Assembly: GCA_033852435.1 (NCBI GenBank)
Contig: JAWOMO010000022.1
Span: 91,448-155,447, forward strand
Direction of reading: 5' to 3'
DNA from: Nitrospira sp.
GTDB taxonomy: Bacteria; Nitrospirota; Nitrospiria; Nitrospirales; Nitrospiraceae
DNA: 64,000 nucleotides
Part shown: positions 1-53,726 of the stretch, in pieces
Layout of the letters: each line of letters starts with the position of its first letter
How positions within the stretch are numbered: the first letter of the stretch is position 1
Notes under the pieces: generated by a model
What the model was told of the DNA's origin: nothing
What the model saw: the letters and a program-made list of their open reading frames with translations, nothing else
The model's database searches: none
Position numbers and translations under genes: made by a program

Positions 1-1173
1 ATCGGCAGCAACACGGAAAATCTGCTTCGCAGTGCGCCCTGTAACGTCCTCGTCTCGAACCGCAAGTACGTGCCGCCGATCGATACGCAAGCCGAATACA
101 CGATCGCCTGGACGGAAGAGGCTCTGCGCCGGATGGAAAAGATCCCTGTGTTCGCCCGCGGTGTTGCGAAGACCGCCATTCACCGTTATGCGATCGAAAA
201 GGGCCATACGATCATCAGCAATACGGTTGTGGATGCAGCGGTCGGCCATATCCTGCCCAAAGGCGCCATGGATGCCATGCGCGCGCTCGGTGGCAGTCTA
301 GAGGCGGCCGGCATCGACCGGGACAAGATGCAAGCGGATGACTCCGTGGCGAAGGACCTCATGGGCTCGACGCTCAGCGGCATGATGACCGAAATCGTGG
401 AAGAGAAGCCGACCGTCAGTGCAGGCACTCAGGCCTATTTGGATCGGATGACTCAGAATTACTTCGTCTGTGACGGCTGCGGCTACATCGGCAAGGGCGA
501 GACGCCAGTGAAGTGCCCGGTGTGCGGTGCGGAAGCGGCTCGGTTCAAACAGGTCGACAAGAGCATCTTTGAAGCAGCGGCGAAGGCGGAAGGCGGGGTC
601 GAAACCGATGTAGCCTACGACGATGTGCCGATGCAGTGGACGAAGGACGCGAAGGAAGCGATCCGTGCCGTGCCGGCGGGGTTCCAGCGTCGCCGCGCCA
701 AAGCCAAGATCGAAAAGACGGCACGCAAACTCGGGATGACCACGATCACGCTGGAATATGCCGCCCCCATGATCAAAGAGGCTGCTTCAGAAGACTACCA
801 GCCGATTTTCGCGAACAAGGGTGGCGGAACATCCGCAGAAGCCGAAGCGAAGTTGGCGGCCGTCAACGGCAACGGCACTCATGAGAATGGTAATGGAAGT
901 GGAAACGGCCAGGCTGAAGCCTCCCCCTATACCTGGACCACCGATGCCCAAGCGAGGTTGGATCGTGCACCGGAGGGTTTCATGCGGGATTGCACGAAGG
1001 CACTGATCATCAAGCACGCGGACAAGATCGGCACCACCCTCATCACGTTGGAAGTCGCCAACGAAGGGATCGAGCAGGCCAAGGGCTATATGGAAGAGGC
1101 CATGAAGACCGGCAACCTCAAGGACATGATCGCCAACCTTACCGGCAAAGCCAAGTCCGGGGCCAGTCACTGA
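1..1173 (+). CDS. Multidomain protein with its 5' end off-window: USP-like C-terminus, three PCP_red-like repeats and a rubredoxin-type zinc ribbon
   Basis: Frame 1 is open from nt 1 (IGSNTENLLRSAPCNVLVSN resembles a universal-stress-protein C-terminus), so the track ORF 70..1173 is an internal piece. It has three repeats of the W-T-x-x-A...P.F.R...IE..A...G...IT type (AWTEEALRRMEKIPVFARG, QWTKDAKEAIRAVPAGFQRR, TWTTDAQARLDRAPEGFMRD), as in the ChlB/BchB C-terminal PCP_red domain. A CDGCGY...CPVCG zinc ribbon and an NG-rich linker are also present. Confidence 0.75.
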   Translation: MGSNTENLLRSAPCNVLVSNRKYVPPIDTQAEYTIAWTEEALRRMEKIPVFARGVAKTAIHRYAIEKGHTIISNTVVDAAVGHILPKGAMDAMRALGGSLEAAGIDRDKMQADDSVAKDLMGSTLSGMMTEIVEEKPTVSAGTQAYLDRMTQNYFVCDGCGYIGKGETPVKCPVCGAEAARFKQVDKSIFEAAAKAEGGVETDVAYDDVPMQWTKDAKEAIRAVPAGFQRRRAKAKIEKTARKLGMTTITLEYAAPMIKEAASEDYQPIFANKGGGTSAEAEAKLAAVNGNGTHENGNGSGNGQAEASPYTWTTDAQARLDRAPEGFMRDCTKALIIKHADKIGTTLITLEVANEGIEQAKGYMEEAMKTGNLKDMIANLTGKAKSGASH

Positions 1174-2567
1174 TGGGGAAATCGCTGCCGATCCTGAACA
1201 TCCCGACTTTGCCGGGAGCGCTCGGATCGTTTCAACAACAGATCACGCAGTTCTTTACGCCCACCCCACAGGGCGAAGGCCCTTACGACGGCCGGACCGT
1301 CGACGACTTCAAGCCCTATCTCGTCGCGCTGAACCTCACCAAACGTTGCAACCTCAAATGCGACCATTGCTACCTCGACGCAACGACGAAATCCGCCGGA
1401 GGAGACGACGAACTCTCGACTGAAGAATGCTACCGGCTCATCAATCAGATCGCTGAGGTCAACAAAGGCTGCTTGCTCGTCATCACCGGCGGTGAGCCCT
1501 TGGTGCGACCCGATATCCTGGATATCGCGCGGCATGCCGTGAAGCTCGGTTTCATGGTCGTCTTCGGCACCAACGGTATGTTGATCGACGATCAGATGGC
1601 TAAAACCCTGGTGGAGATCGGCGTCATGGGGGTCGGCATCAGCATCGATTCACTCGATCCCGCCAAGCATAACTCCTTCCGCGGCGTCCCCGGAGCCTGG
1701 GAAGCAGCTATCGCCGGCATCGAAGCCAGCAAGCGCAATGGCCTCCAGTTCCAAGTCCACTTCAGCGCTCAGCCCATGAATTATCAGGAGCTTCCTTCCG
1801 TCGTGGAATGGTCCCATGGCCTCGGCGCCCGTGTCTTGAACGTCTTCTTCATGGTTTGCACAGGCCGTGGCGAAGAGCTGACCGACATCACTCCGGCGCA
1901 GTACGAAGAGGTGCTCGGCTACCTCGTCAACTGCCAGGACAATTACAAAGGCATGCTGGTCCGCGCCCGTTGTGCGCCGCATTTCAAGCGGCTGGCCTAT
2001 GAAAAGGACCCCAACTCCCCGATCACGAAGGCGACGGGCTACATGGGCGGAGGCTGCCTCGCCGGCACTAACTATGCCCGCGTGACGCCGAATGGCGAGC
2101 TGACGCCTTGCCCCTACATGCCGCTTTCAGCCGGCAATGTCCGCCAGAATAGTTTTGTCGACCTCTGGGAAAAATCGGATATTTTCAACTCGTTCCGGTA
2201 TCCTCAGCTCAAAGGTAAATGCGGTGACTGCGAATACACCGATATCTGCGGCGGCTGTCGTGCCCGTCCCTATGTGGACCATGGGGATTGGCTGGATGAA
2301 GACCAGTGGTGTCTCTACACACCAAAGGGCGGCGAAAAGATTAAAGTTGCCTTCAATATTCAAGAAGAGACCGAAGTCTCCTGGGACGAGGCCTCAGCTC
2401 TGCGGCTCAGCCGCATTCCCTATTTCCTCCGTGCGATGGTCAAGAAGGGCGTGGAAAAGCACGCCCGTGAAAACGGCATTTCGACGGTGACCATCGAGTT
2501 GATGGAAGAACTTCGCAAGAAACGGTTTGGGAACGACGCGCCGGTCTTTAAATTTGACAAGCCATGA
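1173..2567 (+). CDS. Radical SAM / SPASM-domain protein (NirJ/AhbD-like) with a C-terminal PCP_red-like repeat
   Basis: I moved the start to ATG 1173, which forms an ATGA overlap with the upstream stop. It carries CNLKCDHCY (CxxxCxxC), TGGEPL and FGTNG motifs. The Cys-rich auxiliary-cluster region is CGDCEYTDICGGCRARPY. The C-terminal SWDEASALRLSRIPYFLRAMVKKGVEKHARENGISTVTIE repeats the domain seen three times in the upstream gene. Confidence 0.85.
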   Translation: MGKSLPILNIPTLPGALGSFQQQITQFFTPTPQGEGPYDGRTVDDFKPYLVALNLTKRCNLKCDHCYLDATTKSAGGDDELSTEECYRLINQIAEVNKGCLLVITGGEPLVRPDILDIARHAVKLGFMVVFGTNGMLIDDQMAKTLVEIGVMGVGISIDSLDPAKHNSFRGVPGAWEAAIAGIEASKRNGLQFQVHFSAQPMNYQELPSVVEWSHGLGARVLNVFFMVCTGRGEELTDITPAQYEEVLGYLVNCQDNYKGMLVRARCAPHFKRLAYEKDPNSPITKATGYMGGGCLAGTNYARVTPNGELTPCPYMPLSAGNVRQNSFVDLWEKSDIFNSFRYPQLKGKCGDCEYTDICGGCRARPYVDHGDWLDEDQWCLYTPKGGEKIKVAFNIQEETEVSWDEASALRLSRIPYFLRAMVKKGVEKHARENGISTVTIELMEELRKKRFGNDAPVFKFDKP

Positions 2568-2645
2568 CCGCTATCGGCCGTCAGCTCTCGGCTCGGAGAG
2601 CAGACTGACCTCTTGGCTGAACGCTGATTGCTGAAAGCTACTCGC

Positions 2646-3155
2646 ATGGACGCCTTACAGAGCATTGCCACTGATCTCAACACCCTCATCCCGATCCTCA
2701 ATCATTGGTTTCATCTGTTGTCGGCGGTGATCTGGATCGGCGGGCTGGCCTTCCTCGTCATGGCCGTCACCCCCGGTTTGCAGAAGGCCGTTGCGAAGGA
2801 GCAGATCAAGCCCATTACGGACATTTTTTATCGGTACTACAAGAAGGTGGCAGGGATTCTGTTGGTTGTCTTGTTATTTACGGGGGGGATTAATCTCCAT
2901 TACGTGAATCAGGTTCTCACGTCTCAAACCGGCAGCGGCGTACAGCACCACGCCAAATACCTCACGGTCTTTTTCGTCAAGCTCGCCCTCGTGCTCGGCC
3001 TCTTAACCTTGTTCCTCTATACGGTGATCTTTAAATCAGATGACGAGGCGGAAGAGGGCGAGTCTTACGAAGTGATTCCCTTCCAGCGTGCCGCCCTTTG
3101 GATGGGTTTCTTCATCATTCTCTGCGCCGCCGCGATGAAGCATCTGCATCAGTAG
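2646..3155 (+). CDS. Four-TM membrane protein, CopD/HemJ-like (tentative)
   Basis: There are four hydrophobic helices (LLSAVIWIGGLAFLVMAV, VAGILLVVLLFTGGI, VFFVKLALVLGLLTLFLYTVI, LWMGFFIILCAAA). The H..LSAVIW.GG motif resembles the CopD family. ATG 2646 is preferred over TTG 2628. Confidence 0.6.
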   Translation: MDALQSIATDLNTLIPILNHWFHLLSAVIWIGGLAFLVMAVTPGLQKAVAKEQIKPITDIFYRYYKKVAGILLVVLLFTGGINLHYVNQVLTSQTGSGVQHHAKYLTVFFVKLALVLGLLTLFLYTVIFKSDDEAEEGESYEVIPFQRAALWMGFFIILCAAAMKHLHQ

Positions 3156-3689
3156 ATCAGTCAGATTCCCTCATTCCCTTCACCCGTCGTAGCCTATTTC
3201 CTGACGTATCTCTTCAGATAATGGCAGTATTGTTTCCGATACTGCTGTTCTCGACGCTGATCTTCCCATCTCGACGGCAAACCAACACAAAGTTTTTAAA
3301 CGCTAGACAGTTCAAGCGCTTGCCTCTTCTCCTTCCTTCTGGCGCGATGAGTTATGACGCTGGTACAGGCGTTGCTGAGAGTACCGCAGCAACTCATTGA
3401 GAACCAGACCATGGCGGCGATCACGAGTTGGACTTCCATTGGCAAGGTACGGCGCCGACGGACCCCCATGAGGACAGGGAAGCCTCTGTCGCGATTGTGG
3501 GATGACCTCCGGATCATGCCCATCTGGAGCGATGCCGTCGCCACGTATTTCTGCCATCCCGGCCGCGTGTCTGCCCTCAGTCGGCGCTCGGCCTCCCAGC
3601 CAATCCAAGAACATCTTCTTTTCTGGGCCTGTGCGTTCCCAAATTCAGGCAAGCCGAGCCCATTTCACCAGATAGTGAAGGAGGTACCT

Positions 3690-4100
3690 ATGACAATGAT
3701 CTCTCAGGCAACGCCCACTGCCGCAGAGGAAAAACTCCAACGCGCAATGCACCTCAGCGGAACGCCAGTGATCAGAGCTATTGAAGCAAAGCCTCGAATG
3801 GTTCGATTGACCGTCAATCTGCCATCGGATCTCGTTGAGAAAATGCGCGACGCGGTCTACTGGACTCCGGGACTCACGCTTGCCTGGATGATTGCACGAT
3901 CTGTCCGCACATCTCTGGCTGAACTGGAACAGGCTCACCAGGGTCCCTTTCCCAAACGCTCCAAACCGCTCCGTGCCGGTCGGCCTCGATTGGTTGGCCA
4001 ATCGATGAAGGTCCAGGCTCAACCGTCCAACAGCAGAGGAACATCATCGGGGGACCGCTCCATGCAAGCCCGCGTGGTTTCAGAACCGTTGAAGGAGTGA
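3690..4100 (+). CDS. Small DNA-binding-like protein (ribbon-helix-helix / ParB-C-like tail), function tentative
   Basis: ATG 3690 lies 5 nt after GAAGGAGG. The upstream 336 nt of the track ORF 3354..4100 lacks coding character. VRLTVNLPSDLVEKMRDAV looks like an RHH strand-helix start. The tail PFPKRSKPLRAGRP resembles ParA-associated centromere-binding proteins as I recall them. Confidence 0.5.
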   Translation: MTMISQATPTAAEEKLQRAMHLSGTPVIRAIEAKPRMVRLTVNLPSDLVEKMRDAVYWTPGLTLAWMIARSVRTSLAELEQAHQGPFPKRSKPLRAGRPRLVGQSMKVQAQPSNSRGTSSGDRSMQARVVSEPLKE

Positions 4101-50560: not shown

Positions 50561-51823
50561 CTACTCGAGAAATGCGGGAACCGTTTCACCTCTAACCAGA
50601 TCTTCGTAAGTTTCTCGCGCCTTGATGATATGGATCTCGCCGTCTTTGATCAGCACCTCAGGCACCCGCGGCCGCGAGTTGTAGTTGGACGCCATGACAA
50701 ACCCGTAGGCTCCCGCGCTCATGACGGCAAGCAGATCGCCGGGCCTGACCTCCGGGAGCGTGCGATCTTTCGCCAGGAAGTCGCCGGACTCACAGACCGG
50801 CCCGACTACATCGACCGAGTGTCTGGGGCGCTGCAACAGGGATTCGAAGACGGGACGGATCTCGTGATAGGCGCTGTAGAGGCTCGGCCTGATCAAGTCG
50901 TTCATCGCAGCATCCACGATAATGAACCGCTTCGCTTCGCCGACCTTTTCGTAGAGCGCTTTGGTCACGAGGATGCCCGCATTCCCCACGATTACGCGTC
51001 CCGGCTCCATCACCAGCGTGAGTTTCAAGTCCCGCACGAGCGGTGAAATGGCGTCGGACAGATCTTGCGGCAATGGCGGCTTCTCGTCGCTGTAGGTGAT
51101 CCCGAGCCCGCCTCCGATGTTCAGATATTGAATGTTGATGCCCTGCTCCTTCAGTGCCCCTATCAGCGTAATCACCTTCTTTAAGGATTCAACGAAGGGC
51201 GTGACCTCTGTCAGTTGCGATCCGATATGCGCATGCACGCCGACGACCTCGATATGCCCGAGTGAGGACGCCAGCTTGAACTCCTCCAAGGCGCGATCGG
51301 CGGCGATCCCGAACTTGCTCTTCTTCAAGCCGGTCGAGATGTAGGGATGCGTCTTGGGATCGATGTCGGGATTGATCCGCAATGCCACGCGGGCTTTCTT
51401 TCCGACCGAAGCGGCCACATCGTTGATCGCGTGAATCTCCGCCGACGACTCGACGTTGAACATGAGGATGTCCGCCTTCAGCGCGTCACGAATCTCCTCC
51501 GCATTCTTACCGACGCCGGCGAACACGATTTTGGAGGAGGGCACACCGGCCTTCAGCGCACGAAACAATTCACCGCCGGACACGATATCGACGCCGCTTC
51601 CTTCCTTCGCCATAAGACGAAGGATCGCCAGATTCGAATTGGCTTTCATCGCAAACGCGATGATGTGCGGGATGTTCTTAAACGCGCTGTCGTACGCGCG
51701 GAAATGCCTGGTCAACGTGGCGTGACTATAGATGTAGCAGGGCGTGCCAACTTCTTTGGCAATCCGGCTGACGGGCACCTGTTCACAATAGAGCTCGCCC
51801 TGGCGATATTCGAAATTATGCAT
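50561..51823 (-). CDS. lysA: Diaminopimelate decarboxylase
   Basis: It has AFAMKANSN (PLP Lys), GGGLGI, CESGD, EPGR and a length of 420 aa. Confidence 0.95.
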   Translation of the reverse strand: MHNFEYRQGELYCEQVPVSRIAKEVGTPCYIYSHATLTRHFRAYDSAFKNIPHIIAFAMKANSNLAILRLMAKEGSGVDIVSGGELFRALKAGVPSSKIVFAGVGKNAEEIRDALKADILMFNVESSAEIHAINDVAASVGKKARVALRINPDIDPKTHPYISTGLKKSKFGIAADRALEEFKLASSLGHIEVVGVHAHIGSQLTEVTPFVESLKKVITLIGALKEQGINIQYLNIGGGLGITYSDEKPPLPQDLSDAISPLVRDLKLTLVMEPGRVIVGNAGILVTKALYEKVGEAKRFIIVDAAMNDLIRPSLYSAYHEIRPVFESLLQRPRHSVDVVGPVCESGDFLAKDRTLPEVRPGDLLAVMSAGAYGFVMASNYNSRPRVPEVLIKDGEIHIIKARETYEDLVRGETVPAFLE

Positions 51824-53726
51824 CCTGAAAATCCTCGCTCAGCATTTCGAGACCCGCAAGGGAGAAGCCTTGCAGCGAGGTCTCGAAGGCGTCCTTGAAC
51901 TTGCGATAGCGCACCTTGACGTGCGGCACAGCGGCCTTGATGGCCTCCGAATCGATCAAGGCCTTCAGCGCATCTGGCGCTGCCAGTTTCAGGTGCTCGA
52001 AATTGACGATGACGTCCAATTTCGCGTTCTCGGCCGCCTCTTTGATCCGCTTGATGAGTTCCTGAACATTCAGCCGGTCCAGCGCACCCTCGAGATCGAC
52101 AAAGAGGGCGGCGAACTTATCATGCCGTTTGGCTTTGATGTTCAGGGTGAGATTTTCTGTCGACAGCGTCTTCGGGTCTAAGCGTTGCTTCAAGGCATGC
52201 AACGCACTGGGAATGAGTTGATCCCTGTCCAACACAGGGAGCTTGGCTTGCAGATTTTTCAGCACAGTCGCCAAGGGGGAAAGGGTTCCCTTGGGACAGC
52301 TCCGCTTAACCAATTTTCTGAATTCCCGGTTCATTTCCCATCGGGCCACCAACCGCTGCTTGGTGCCGGAAAGCCGATACCAGATGTTGGGCAACGAATA
52401 GAATTGATGGTTGGCCCAATGGAATCCCTCTTGTAGCTGTTCCGGCGTCATGCGACTCGGCTGAAACACAACGTGTTTGCCGTCGTACTTCGACCAATCC
52501 TTGTCGAAGATCCGGCCGGCGTTGTTATAGCGGTCGAAGAGCGCGGTTCCCGGCAACGGCGTGAGAACGTTGAAGTAGGCCAACTCCACTTGATTTTTGG
52601 TCAAAAAATCAACGGCACGTTCAAACACCGCTTCGTCGTCGTTGTCGAACCCGAACACTATGCCAGGATTCACCATGATCCCGTAATCGTGGAACATTTT
52701 GATCTCTTGGGCAAACTTTTTGACGCGGTTGAACGGCTTATTGGTTTCATCGAGGCAGTCTTCATCCAACGATTCCATCCCGACGAATACGGAGACGCAG
52801 CCACTCTCCGCCGCTAACTTGACCATCTCCTCATCATCCGCCAGAAACAACGTCGACTGGCAGCCCCATTTGAGCTTGAGCGGCTTCAATGCCGTCCAGA
52901 GCTCGCGGCAATAGGCGCGGTTGCTGTTGTGCAGGTCGTCGACAAACGCCACGATGCTGCCGTCTTCAATGCCAACTCGAATGCGGAGACTCAGGATGAA
53001 GGCCTTCCAGAGCGGTTCGTCTCGAATACGCTCAACCAATTCGCTGCGAATCCAACGTTGCACGTTCTGGAGTTCCGTGACGACTTCCTCCACCGGCCTG
53101 CGCCGTGTGGTCTTGCCATTGAAGGGCGACACGCTGCAAAACTCACAATCGAAGTGACAACCCCTGGTCGTAAAACTGCATTGCCTCGTCATATAGGCAT
53201 CGGGGCTCAGCAATTCGACGCGCGGGCTCTTGTAATTCTCCAACGCCGGAAACGACGTCATTTTGTACATCCGCTGCATTTGACCCGCCTCGTAGTCTGC
53301 GACTAGTTGCGGCCACAAATCTTCTGCCTCGCCGCATACAATCGCGTCCGCATACTGTAAGGCTTCGTCCGGGCAGTAAGTGGGGTGGACGCCGCCCATC
53401 ACAACGGTTTTCCCTCGCTTGCGAAACTCCTTGGCGATCTCATAGGCGCGGGGCGCATAACAGGTCATGATCGAAAGGCCGACCATATCGCAGGGATAGT
53501 CGAAATCGATGTCCTGCACCGCTTCGTCGACCAAATCGACGGTCCAATGCTCCGGCGTATAGGCGGCGATCGTCGGGAGGCTCAACTTCGGGAACCAGAC
53601 CGCCCGTCGCTCCGACGCCGTCAGGTGGTACTGGCTGTTGCGAGGATAGGGATCCACCAGCAGCAACCGTTTGCCCGCGGTCTGCCGGGGCAAATGGCCT
53701 TGTCGCATTGGTTGAATCAGTTGCAT
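51816..53726 (-). CDS. B12-binding-domain radical SAM protein (DUF4070-type) with a STAS-like C-terminal extension
   Basis: It has an N-terminal cobalamin-binding-like Rossmann region (LLLVDPYP...VGLSIMTCYAPRAYEIAKEFRKRGKTVVMGGVHPT) and RGCHFDCEFCS (CxxxCxxC). The region FNVLTPLPGTALF...DWSKYDG is DUF4070-like. The last ~140 aa (FVDLEGALDRLNVQELIKRIKEAAENAKLDVIVNFEHLKLAAPDALKALI) resemble an anti-sigma-antagonist/STAS fold. It overlaps lysA by 8 nt. Confidence 0.8.
   Translation of the reverse strand: MQLIQPMRQGHLPRQTAGKRLLLVDPYPRNSQYHLTASERRAVWFPKLSLPTIAAYTPEHWTVDLVDEAVQDIDFDYPCDMVGLSIMTCYAPRAYEIAKEFRKRGKTVVMGGVHPTYCPDEALQYADAIVCGEAEDLWPQLVADYEAGQMQRMYKMTSFPALENYKSPRVELLSPDAYMTRQCSFTTRGCHFDCEFCSVSPFNGKTTRRRPVEEVVTELQNVQRWIRSELVERIRDEPLWKAFILSLRIRVGIEDGSIVAFVDDLHNSNRAYCRELWTALKPLKLKWGCQSTLFLADDEEMVKLAAESGCVSVFVGMESLDEDCLDETNKPFNRVKKFAQEIKMFHDYGIMVNPGIVFGFDNDDEAVFERAVDFLTKNQVELAYFNVLTPLPGTALFDRYNNAGRIFDKDWSKYDGKHVVFQPSRMTPEQLQEGFHWANHQFYSLPNIWYRLSGTKQRLVARWEMNREFRKLVKRSCPKGTLSPLATVLKNLQAKLPVLDRDQLIPSALHALKQRLDPKTLSTENLTLNIKAKRHDKFAALFVDLEGALDRLNVQELIKRIKEAAENAKLDVIVNFEHLKLAAPDALKALIDSEAIKAAVPHVKVRYRKFKDAFETSLQGFSLAGLEMLSEDFQDA

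Follow-up and report, generated by a model that had tools for sequence, protein, structure and literature searches.

We analyzed a stretch of 64,000 nucleotides from Nitrospira sp. (assembly GCA_033852435.1, contig JAWOMO010000022.1, positions 91,448 to 155,447), hereafter called the window. At its 5′ end, two overlapping genes encode a protein composed of universal stress protein (USP), PCP_red, and rubredoxin-like domains (the partner) and a radical S-adenosylmethionine (SAM) enzyme that carries a SPASM region and a PCP_red domain of its own (the enzyme). We propose that this pair is a heme-pathway module, in which a variant of AhbD, probably a coproheme decarboxylase, acts together with tetrapyrrole-handling accessory domains. 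This reading stands about an even chance of being correct, and a tetrapyrrole as the substrate is firmer than the exact reaction. Every nearest curated family of the enzyme consists of tetrapyrrole side-chain enzymes, and HemY and hemoprotein genes are recurrent neighbors of the pair. This PCP_red-tagged AhbD-family enzyme combines a new accessory domain with a near-obligatory partner and a new genomic association. Our literature search on PCP_red (PF08369) returned nothing relevant outside dark-operative protochlorophyllide oxidoreductase (DPOR) and no report on the enzyme fusion or the gene pair.

Domain composition of the enzyme and its partner

Besides the Radical_SAM domain (E = 6e-23), Pfam detected a SPASM domain in the enzyme (PF13186, residues 295-354, E = 9.4e-10), as proposed in the initial annotation of this stretch. 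Against the curated models, the enzyme reached 320 bits for NirJ2 (TIGR04055) and 306 bits for AhbD (TIGR04545), followed by 172 bits for NirJ and 169 bits for AhbC. These scores bear out the relation to NirJ and AhbD that had been suggested before, while staying below the cutoffs of all four of these tetrapyrrole radical SAM families, which range from 500 to 650 bits. AhbD, a radical SAM heme b synthase, and its Firmicute counterpart NirJ2 are thus the best-scoring curated families. The enzyme shares with them the CX3CX2C radical SAM core, a SPASM region with cysteines for two auxiliary clusters, and possibly an association with heme-pathway or hemoprotein genes, which are its neighbors in many lineages. 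Judged from the sequence, the eight invariant cysteines (Table 1) would be enough for two auxiliary [4Fe-4S] clusters. Two such clusters are reported for AhbD of M. barkeri, according to the statement in PMC13564367 that cites this work. In contrast to AhbD and NirJ2, our enzyme falls below the cutoffs, belongs to a separate clade, ends in PCP_red (one to four copies in this clade), and has a near-obligatory USP/PCP_red partner as well as, in Nitrospira, an N-terminal extension of ∼45 residues.

The AlphaFold2 model of the enzyme (predicted local distance difference test, pLDDT, 79.6; predicted template modeling score, pTM, 0.76) showed a confident radical SAM/SPASM body, 35 disordered N-terminal residues, a weak linker, and the PCP_red domain as a three-helix unit. 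A Foldseek search against the PDB with this model returned generic SPASM enzymes only (SkfB, PqqE, SuiB, anSME, and BlsE), and neither PDB sequence searches nor Foldseek revealed an existing AhbD structure for comparison. The N-terminal extension (window 1173-1307, ∼45 codons) is kept in the Nitrospira homologs, as seen from 99% query coverage, and is missing in most other clade members; AlphaFold2 predicts disorder here (pLDDT 30-47). Pfam did not identify any RiPP recognition element (RRE) or PqqD-like domain in either protein (RiPP, ribosomally synthesized and post-translationally modified peptide). In agreement with the initial annotation, no precursor-peptide open reading frame (ORF) was found in the ORF listing or in the intergenic gaps of 1-78 nt, and no dedicated short-ORF search was made.

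Only the 3′ part of the partner gene lies in the window. The 5′ end, already known to be missing, was recovered through an exact-sequence match of the enzyme on a 160-kb contig of a Nitrospira metagenome-assembled genome (MAG; GCA_037932095.1, locus L001). The complete partner (L001:7905-10001) has 698 aa and the domain order USP-USP-PCP_red-rubredoxin-like-PCP_red-PCP_red. For this full-length protein, Pfam reported Usp in two stretches (E = 7.6e-33), PCP_red (E = 3.9e-30), and RUBY_RBDX (E = 1e-06). Both USP domains contain the nucleotide motif G-2x-G-9x-G-S of the ATP-binding type of USP (PF00582). The USP module read from the window by the initial annotation is therefore real, but the window holds just the last ∼20 residues of one domain, and the full protein has two. 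The CxxC...CxxC metal site that had been noted was recognized as a rubredoxin-type knuckle. It also matches the C-termini of nigerythrin and rubrerythrin and is rare, being present in 4 of 29 partner lineages. The stop codon of the partner gene (TGA, 1171-1173) and the start codon of the enzyme gene (ATG, 1173-1175) have one base in common. Thus, the two genes do overlap at 1171-1175, although as TGATG and not as the ATGA described earlier.

PCP_red was detected in three stretches of the window portion of the partner (E = 3.3e-31, 107.5 bits) and once in the enzyme (E = 1.1e-13, 51.4 bits), compared to a gathering score of 32.5 bits. Hence, both the fourfold repeat and its assignment to PCP_red were correctly recognized in the initial annotation, whose main elements all lie where it placed them and are far beyond chance. 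All four copies align, with W, P, F, R, K, A, and G invariant. They match the final ∼50 residues of BchB/ChlB, covering positions ∼455-535 only of the BchB model, and the copy of the enzyme also matches ChlB (2xdq_B, residues 452-503, E = 5.6e-06) and the stand-alone domain 2kru_A. In DPOR, the C-terminal helix of BchB covers the protochlorophyllide cavity (PMC4071322), and it is this element over the pocket to which the four repeats align. Unlike BchB/ChlB, the pair comes without photosynthesis genes and without a nitrogenase-like body (Pfam found no Oxidored_nitro domain of the BchN/BchB type in partner or enzyme), and the domain occurs in several copies, joined to USP domains as well as to a radical SAM enzyme. 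How the PCP_red copies are divided between partner and enzyme varies: three in the partner and one in the enzyme in Nitrospira, elsewhere up to five in the partner and three to four in the enzyme. This variation fits the shared docking or substrate-handling module that had been suggested for the common repeats.

Table 1. Features of the gene pair and the downstream gene (window coordinates)
Feature	Position	Strand	Remarks
Partner gene, 3′ part, 390 codons plus stop	1..1173	+	Frame 1, open from the first base
Second USP domain, C-terminal tail (IGSNTENLLRSAPCNVLVSN)	1..60	+	Bears the G-S end of the G-2x-G-9x-G(S/T) motif
PCP_red repeat 1, partner	103..234	+	Pfam best stretch, residues 37-80; alignment
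Rubredoxin-type Cys4 knuckle CDGC...CPVC, RUBY_RBDX	460..546	+	PF21349, 29.5 bits (cutoff 26.5)
PCP_red repeat 2, partner	631..774	+	Pfam, alignment
PCP_red repeat 3, partner	928..1071	+	Pfam, alignment
Radical SAM/SPASM enzyme, AhbD/NirJ2 superfamily, C-terminal PCP_red, 464 aa	1173..2567	+	Pfam, NCBIfam, AlphaFold2
Radical SAM cluster motif CX3CX2C (C59, C63, C66)	1347..1370	+	
Auxiliary-cluster region (C267, C295, C313, C350, C353, C359, C362, C380)	1971..2312	+	Columns invariant in family alignments
Enzyme-fused PCP_red, residues 404-448, three predicted helices	2382..2516	+	Pfam; AlphaFold2 secondary structure
DUF4149/CopD-superfamily four-helix membrane protein, 169 aa	2646..3155	+	ATG 2646; alternative TTG 2628

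Distribution, gene neighborhoods, and expression

Homologs of the enzyme were searched among 1.84 billion cluster representatives. The ∼35 top clusters share 38-53% identity with the enzyme, and nearly all of them end in one to four PCP_red copies. The closest homologs without PCP_red score lower and are AhbD/NirJ2-like themselves; one of them (P0166), which is 42% identical to the enzyme, is a genuine NirJ2 (533 bits, cutoff 500). In neighbor-joining trees, the PCP_red-bearing enzymes form one clade (clade A) beside AhbD/NirJ2, with the domain present in ∼32 of 37 tips. The phylogenetic placement envisaged in the initial annotation therefore puts the enzyme outside the curated AhbD/NirJ2 families, in a clade of its own. 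According to the source names, clade A includes Nitrospira/Nitrospirota, Nitrospinota, a Nitrosomonadales MAG, “Deltaproteobacteria”, Candidatus Binatia, Dehalococcoidia (Chloroflexota), Candidatus Rokubacteria, and Planctomycetota, and it is present in at least six phyla besides Nitrospirota. Its members are named “radical SAM protein” or “radical SAM/SPASM domain-containing protein” by NCBI and, for some, “AdoMet-dependent heme synthase” by JGI.

In one Nitrospirota MAG (L084), the clade-A gene is followed at a distance of 4 kb by a gene for a second AhbD-like enzyme (L084:15368-16468, 435 bits). The family of this second enzyme, clade B (P0307-P0362), is common in Acidobacteriota and often named “heme b synthase” by JGI. 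PCP_red occurs in 19 of its top 120 matches, interleaved with proteins that do not have the domain. PCP_red has thus joined AhbD-like enzymes repeatedly, in two separate clades, which argues for a functional fit of this domain with AhbD-type chemistry.

Synteny inside the genus was derived from GTDB species genomes, in which 362 stretches encode relatives; the best 80 of these 362 are all from Nitrospira (at least 88% identity). More distant contexts came from individual single-protein look-ups and a metagenome scan with the family alignment. Together, these yielded 95 loci, which fall into 48 groups when a cutoff of 75% identity between the enzymes is applied. Their neighboring genes were analyzed as unfiltered ORFs by homology clustering, with Pfam/NCBIfam labels on the representatives; two neighbor families (f148 and f112) turned out to be out-of-frame artefacts.

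Of the 32 groups with at least 1.5 kb of upstream sequence, 27 have a USP(+PCP_red) gene immediately before the enzyme gene and in the same orientation. Conservation of the gene pair, another check named in the initial annotation, therefore extends across several phyla. At least 600 nt of downstream sequence was available for 38 groups. A cytochrome bd-like subunit I gene follows directly on the same strand in 15 of them, usually with two cytochrome c families behind it, and a HemY-type (copro/proto)porphyrinogen oxidase gene takes this place in another nine. The neighboring HemY passes TIGR00562 (271 and 291 bits, cutoff 97.85). Locus L152 combines bd-like, cytochrome c, partner, enzyme, and HemY genes in one string, and on a Rokubacteria contig the pair comes after COX1-CtaA-CtaB-COX3-COX4. 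In 11 groups, a gene for an Mrp/ApbC-like Fe-S carrier, together with one for a small PCP_red-only protein, lies within 6 kb, and in 8 of these groups the two precede the pair. This pairing hints that PCP_red may recruit accessory proteins. Two loci near the pair (L089:7161-8503 and L093:10106-12221) show such an Mrp/ApbC-type Fe-S carrier paired with a PCP_red-only protein that is either small (∼150 aa) or made up of multiple repeats. Large HEAT/PBS-lyase-HEAT-like repeat proteins were observed upstream of the pair in at least four lineages (L095, L118, L122, and L132); HEAT repeats of the PBS-lyase type are typically found in lyases that act on bilins, which are linear tetrapyrroles.

The gene order in the best 80 of the 362 stretches, all from Nitrospira, is mpqE, B12 radical SAM gene, partner, enzyme, and a DUF4149 gene. 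Upstream of the window, at L001, the mpqE/B12 radical SAM block is separated from the partner gene by a gap of 158 nt. Within this block (L001:5301-7747, same strand), mpqE is followed after 27 nt by a gene for an slr0320/LFE_2124-like B12-binding radical SAM protein. The methyltransferase passes the model of MpqE (NF052510), the C2-methylase of methyl-plastoquinone (mPQ), with 414.5 bits (cutoff 335). For the B12 radical SAM protein, the closest match is slr0320 (447.6 bits, cutoff 775). Cobalamin-dependent (class B) radical SAM methylases pass on an intact methyl group via methylcobalamin. Homologs of the slr0320/LFE_2124 type were inactive for C5/C6 methylation in E. coli, and the intact transfer of CD3 was taken as an argument against radical SAM methylases (Elling et al., PMC11874023). 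Because of intact transfer via methylcobalamin, this CD3 argument does not exclude the slr0320/LFE_2124-like enzyme. In a marine Nitrospira (L176:2693-10113, on a contig of 4.71 Mb), partner, enzyme, and membrane protein (here 175 aa) form a triad with MetK and AhcY genes, transcribed divergently, in its flanks instead of mpqE. Such SAM-cycle genes next to an enzyme that consumes SAM may be more than a coincidence.

Both proteins are expressed in Nitrospira marina, as seen from the spectral counts of a published proteome (PMC8115632, Data Set 3). The counts of the partner (a 699-aa “nucleotide-binding universal stress protein”) were 112/132/125 (air) and 132/97/128 (low O2), and those of the adjacent 460-aa SPASM radical SAM protein were 38/43/44 (air) and 32/18/27 (low O2). 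Under full air, both proteins are therefore abundant and produced constitutively. The proteome also contains HemE and a HemY-type “oxygen-dependent protoporphyrinogen oxidase”, which have adjacent gene IDs, as well as a 159-aa “proto-chlorophyllide reductase subunit” consisting of PCP_red only. No entry of the proteome tables is named coproporphyrinogen oxidase or dehydrogenase, which describes the tables and is no proof for the genome.

A proposed role in heme synthesis and its alternatives

What we observed comprises the domains, the clade, the conserved pairing, the gene neighborhoods, and the expression in N. marina; the substrate, the reaction, and the functions of PCP_red, USP, and the rubredoxin knuckle are proposals. 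The enzyme would most likely decarboxylate the propionate side chains of a tetrapyrrole by an oxidative reaction that does not require oxygen. Its most probable reaction would be the conversion of coproheme (Fe-coproporphyrin III) to heme b, with which the coproporphyrin-dependent route ends. On the enzyme, PCP_red would cover the tetrapyrrole like a lid or help to hand it over. The partner, with one to five further PCP_red copies behind two nucleotide-binding USP domains, would hold or present the substrate or product and dock the enzyme. The Fe(Cys)4 knuckle of the Nitrospira partner possibly relays the electrons released by the reaction, and the heme would then be handed to respiratory hemoproteins. 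A partner of this kind would recall the SCP2 proteins UbiJ and UbiT of ubiquinone synthesis, where an abundant, non-catalytic-looking protein with repeated small domains also stands beside an enzyme; the folds are unrelated, and the carrier role of our partner is a proposal.

Linkage of hemY and hemQ is found in Gram-positive bacteria. The pairs of ChdC (HemQ) and CgoX (HemY) resemble our system in the HemY gene directly behind the enzyme (9 of 38 groups) and in the proposed reaction, which would be that of ChdC. In contrast to ChdC, the enzyme is non-homologous and would use a radical mechanism that is independent of oxygen and peroxide, and HemY is not adjacent in the window. In some organisms with the coproporphyrin pathway, AhbD is known to take the place of ChdC, and it serves organisms of this kind that lack the other Ahb enzymes (PMC13564367). 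If our proposal is true, AhbD-type oxygen-independent heme synthesis reaches aerobic diderm bacteria, and the module is a concrete candidate for the terminal heme step in the main nitrite oxidizers (Nitrospira, Nitrospina) as well as in numerous uncultured phyla of soil and groundwater. PCP_red would gain its first functional context outside protochlorophyllide reductase. In addition, the gene pair links a heme-pathway-like enzyme physically to unexplained bd-like oxidase clusters.

Several observations weigh against this role. The enzyme misses the AhbD and NirJ2 cutoffs (306 and 320 bits, compared to 500), a homolog from the sister group of Nitrospira (L082 group) reaches 331.8 bits with the AhbD model, and identity to the best AhbD/NirJ2-like references is just 38-42%. 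The closest upstream genes in the source locus and in Nitrospira lineages I and II are mpqE and the B12 radical SAM gene, not heme genes, and none of the lineages examined showed a ferrochelatase gene close to the pair. Since at least one genome (L084) encodes both enzymes, the clade-A and the second AhbD-like enzyme may not be redundant. Outside DPOR, PCP_red could be a purely protein-protein docking unit. Finally, one would hardly expect a general heme b synthase to be linked so tightly to one oxidase type (bd-like), and this linkage points to a dedicated cofactor role.

This linkage leads to the main rival explanation, namely that the pair matures a cofactor for the enigmatic bd-like oxidases of superclusters of the nitrite oxidoreductase (NXR) type by making or inserting a special, possibly modified heme, so that the enzyme would differ from a general heme b synthase. 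We consider this unlikely, yet it accounts for the strongest single linkage, the bd-like gene immediately downstream in 15 of 38 lineages, and for locus L091, in which the pair lies between an NXR-like molybdoenzyme/NarJ-like chaperone block and bd-like, cytochrome c, and EB_dh genes. The second AhbD-like enzyme in L084 could then be the housekeeping one, and the bd-like oxidase has indeed been described as enigmatic and conserved with NXR (PMC3578206). By analogy, the role of the pair would parallel that of CtaA/CtaB, which serve aa3 oxidases. As a cofactor-maturation system for bd-like oxidases with a non-standard heme, the pair would make PCP_red a portable tetrapyrrole carrier beyond chlorophyll synthesis, an idea that we likewise consider unlikely. 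However, neither the 64-kb Nitrospira window nor the marine Nitrospira locus L176 contains a bd-like gene, the alternative neighbor HemY is a general pathway enzyme, and no chemistry for a modified heme in bd-like oxidases is known. Less probable still is a different reaction on a tetrapyrrole side chain, such as an AhbC/NirJ-like deacetylation, a propionate removal, or a step of a siroheme- or cobalamin-related branch. The sub-threshold scores on all four curated families, the separate clade, and the coexisting AhbD-like enzyme in L084 would suit such a reaction, but the AhbD/NirJ2 scores are about twice those for AhbC, NirJ, and NirJ1, and AhbA/B-like, cd1 nitrite reductase, and cobalamin genes were not recurrent in our neighbor survey.

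The initial annotation had allowed for a protein or peptide substrate besides a tetrapyrrole-like one. The sequence relatives of the enzyme and its HemY/hemoprotein neighbors favor the tetrapyrrole, whereas a SPASM maturase that modifies the partner or another protein or peptide, with PCP_red merely as a homotypic docking unit, appears very improbable. Many SPASM enzymes do modify proteins, SkfB, PqqE, SuiB, and anSME were the best structure matches, the repeats are common to both proteins, and the PCP_red-only proteins beside Mrp/ApbC-type carriers in 8-11 lineages suggest protein-protein recruitment; on the other hand, RRE/PqqD-like domains and small precursor ORFs are missing from the Pfam results and the ORF listing, respectively, and the nearest relatives by sequence are tetrapyrrole enzymes and not RiPP maturases. 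We assign the lowest probability to a missing step of mPQ biosynthesis in Nitrospira, either a decarboxylation or the C1-hydroxylation. This idea is attractive because Nitrospira has neither MpqD/X nor a known C1 hydroxylase: pathway steps remain unassigned there, with MpqD/X absent and no UbiH homolog known (PMC11874023 and bioRxiv supplementary information). In addition, essentially all lineage I/II loci with upstream sequence have mpqE and the B12 radical SAM gene ahead of the pair and in the same orientation, and AhbD chemistry is a decarboxylation. But AhbD takes CO2 from an alkyl propionate and not from an aromatic acid, and the mpqE block and the pair are set apart by the 158-nt gap. 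Moreover, mPQ genes are reported solely from aerobic Nitrospirota (PMC11874023), whereas clade A extends to Nitrospinota, Rokubacteria, Binatia, Chloroflexota, Planctomycetota, and “Deltaproteobacteria” MAGs. The linkage is also lost in marine Nitrospira, with its MetK/AhcY flanks, and in the L082-L095 contexts. We therefore gave this idea less weight, since the clade spans many phyla and the mpqE linkage is lost within the genus. The adjacency of mpqE is probably coincidental, and its neighborhood in Nitrospira should not be read as an mPQ operon without further tests.

The downstream gene and the remaining window

The third gene had been described as CopD/HemJ-like. Its product passes DUF4149 (about 26.7 bits, cutoff 24.6), but fails CopD (about 19.2-19.5 bits, cutoff 32.1), so that the CopD part of this description stays below the cutoff, and the HemJ likeness is not supported (PF03653, E = 0.96, 10.2 bits, cutoff 34.2). 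The 78-nt spacer between the enzyme gene and this gene is correct if translation starts at ATG 2646. A single-sequence AlphaFold2 model (pLDDT 66, pTM 0.42) was too poor for a structure search. The gene is located downstream of the enzyme gene in all Nitrospira loci and is confined to Nitrospira and the L082 sister group, with 67% protein identity in marine Nitrospira and 38% in the L082 group; it is missing from most other lineages. At L082:11350-12393 and L086:2055-3102, both from this sister group, a CopD-like gene is followed by a Monooxy_af470-like gene (PF13826), with a catalase gene farther downstream.

No heme, quinone, bd-like, or HemY genes were found in the 64-kb window, which also contains no tRNA genes or Rfam matches, and promoter and terminator scans stayed at or under shuffle expectation. 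The remaining genes of the window have housekeeping functions (for example, FtsK, LolA, PdxA, arginine and lysine biosynthesis, and a PEP-utilizing enzyme). Between the DUF4149 gene and a response regulator gene, an ORF at 3354-4100 (+) encodes 229-248 aa without a Pfam match. It is weakly conserved or missing in most other Nitrospira loci and thus marks a variable spot in an otherwise conserved synteny. A further B12-binding radical SAM protein (636 aa) is encoded at 51816-53726 (-), between a diaminopimelate/ornithine decarboxylase-like gene and argH.

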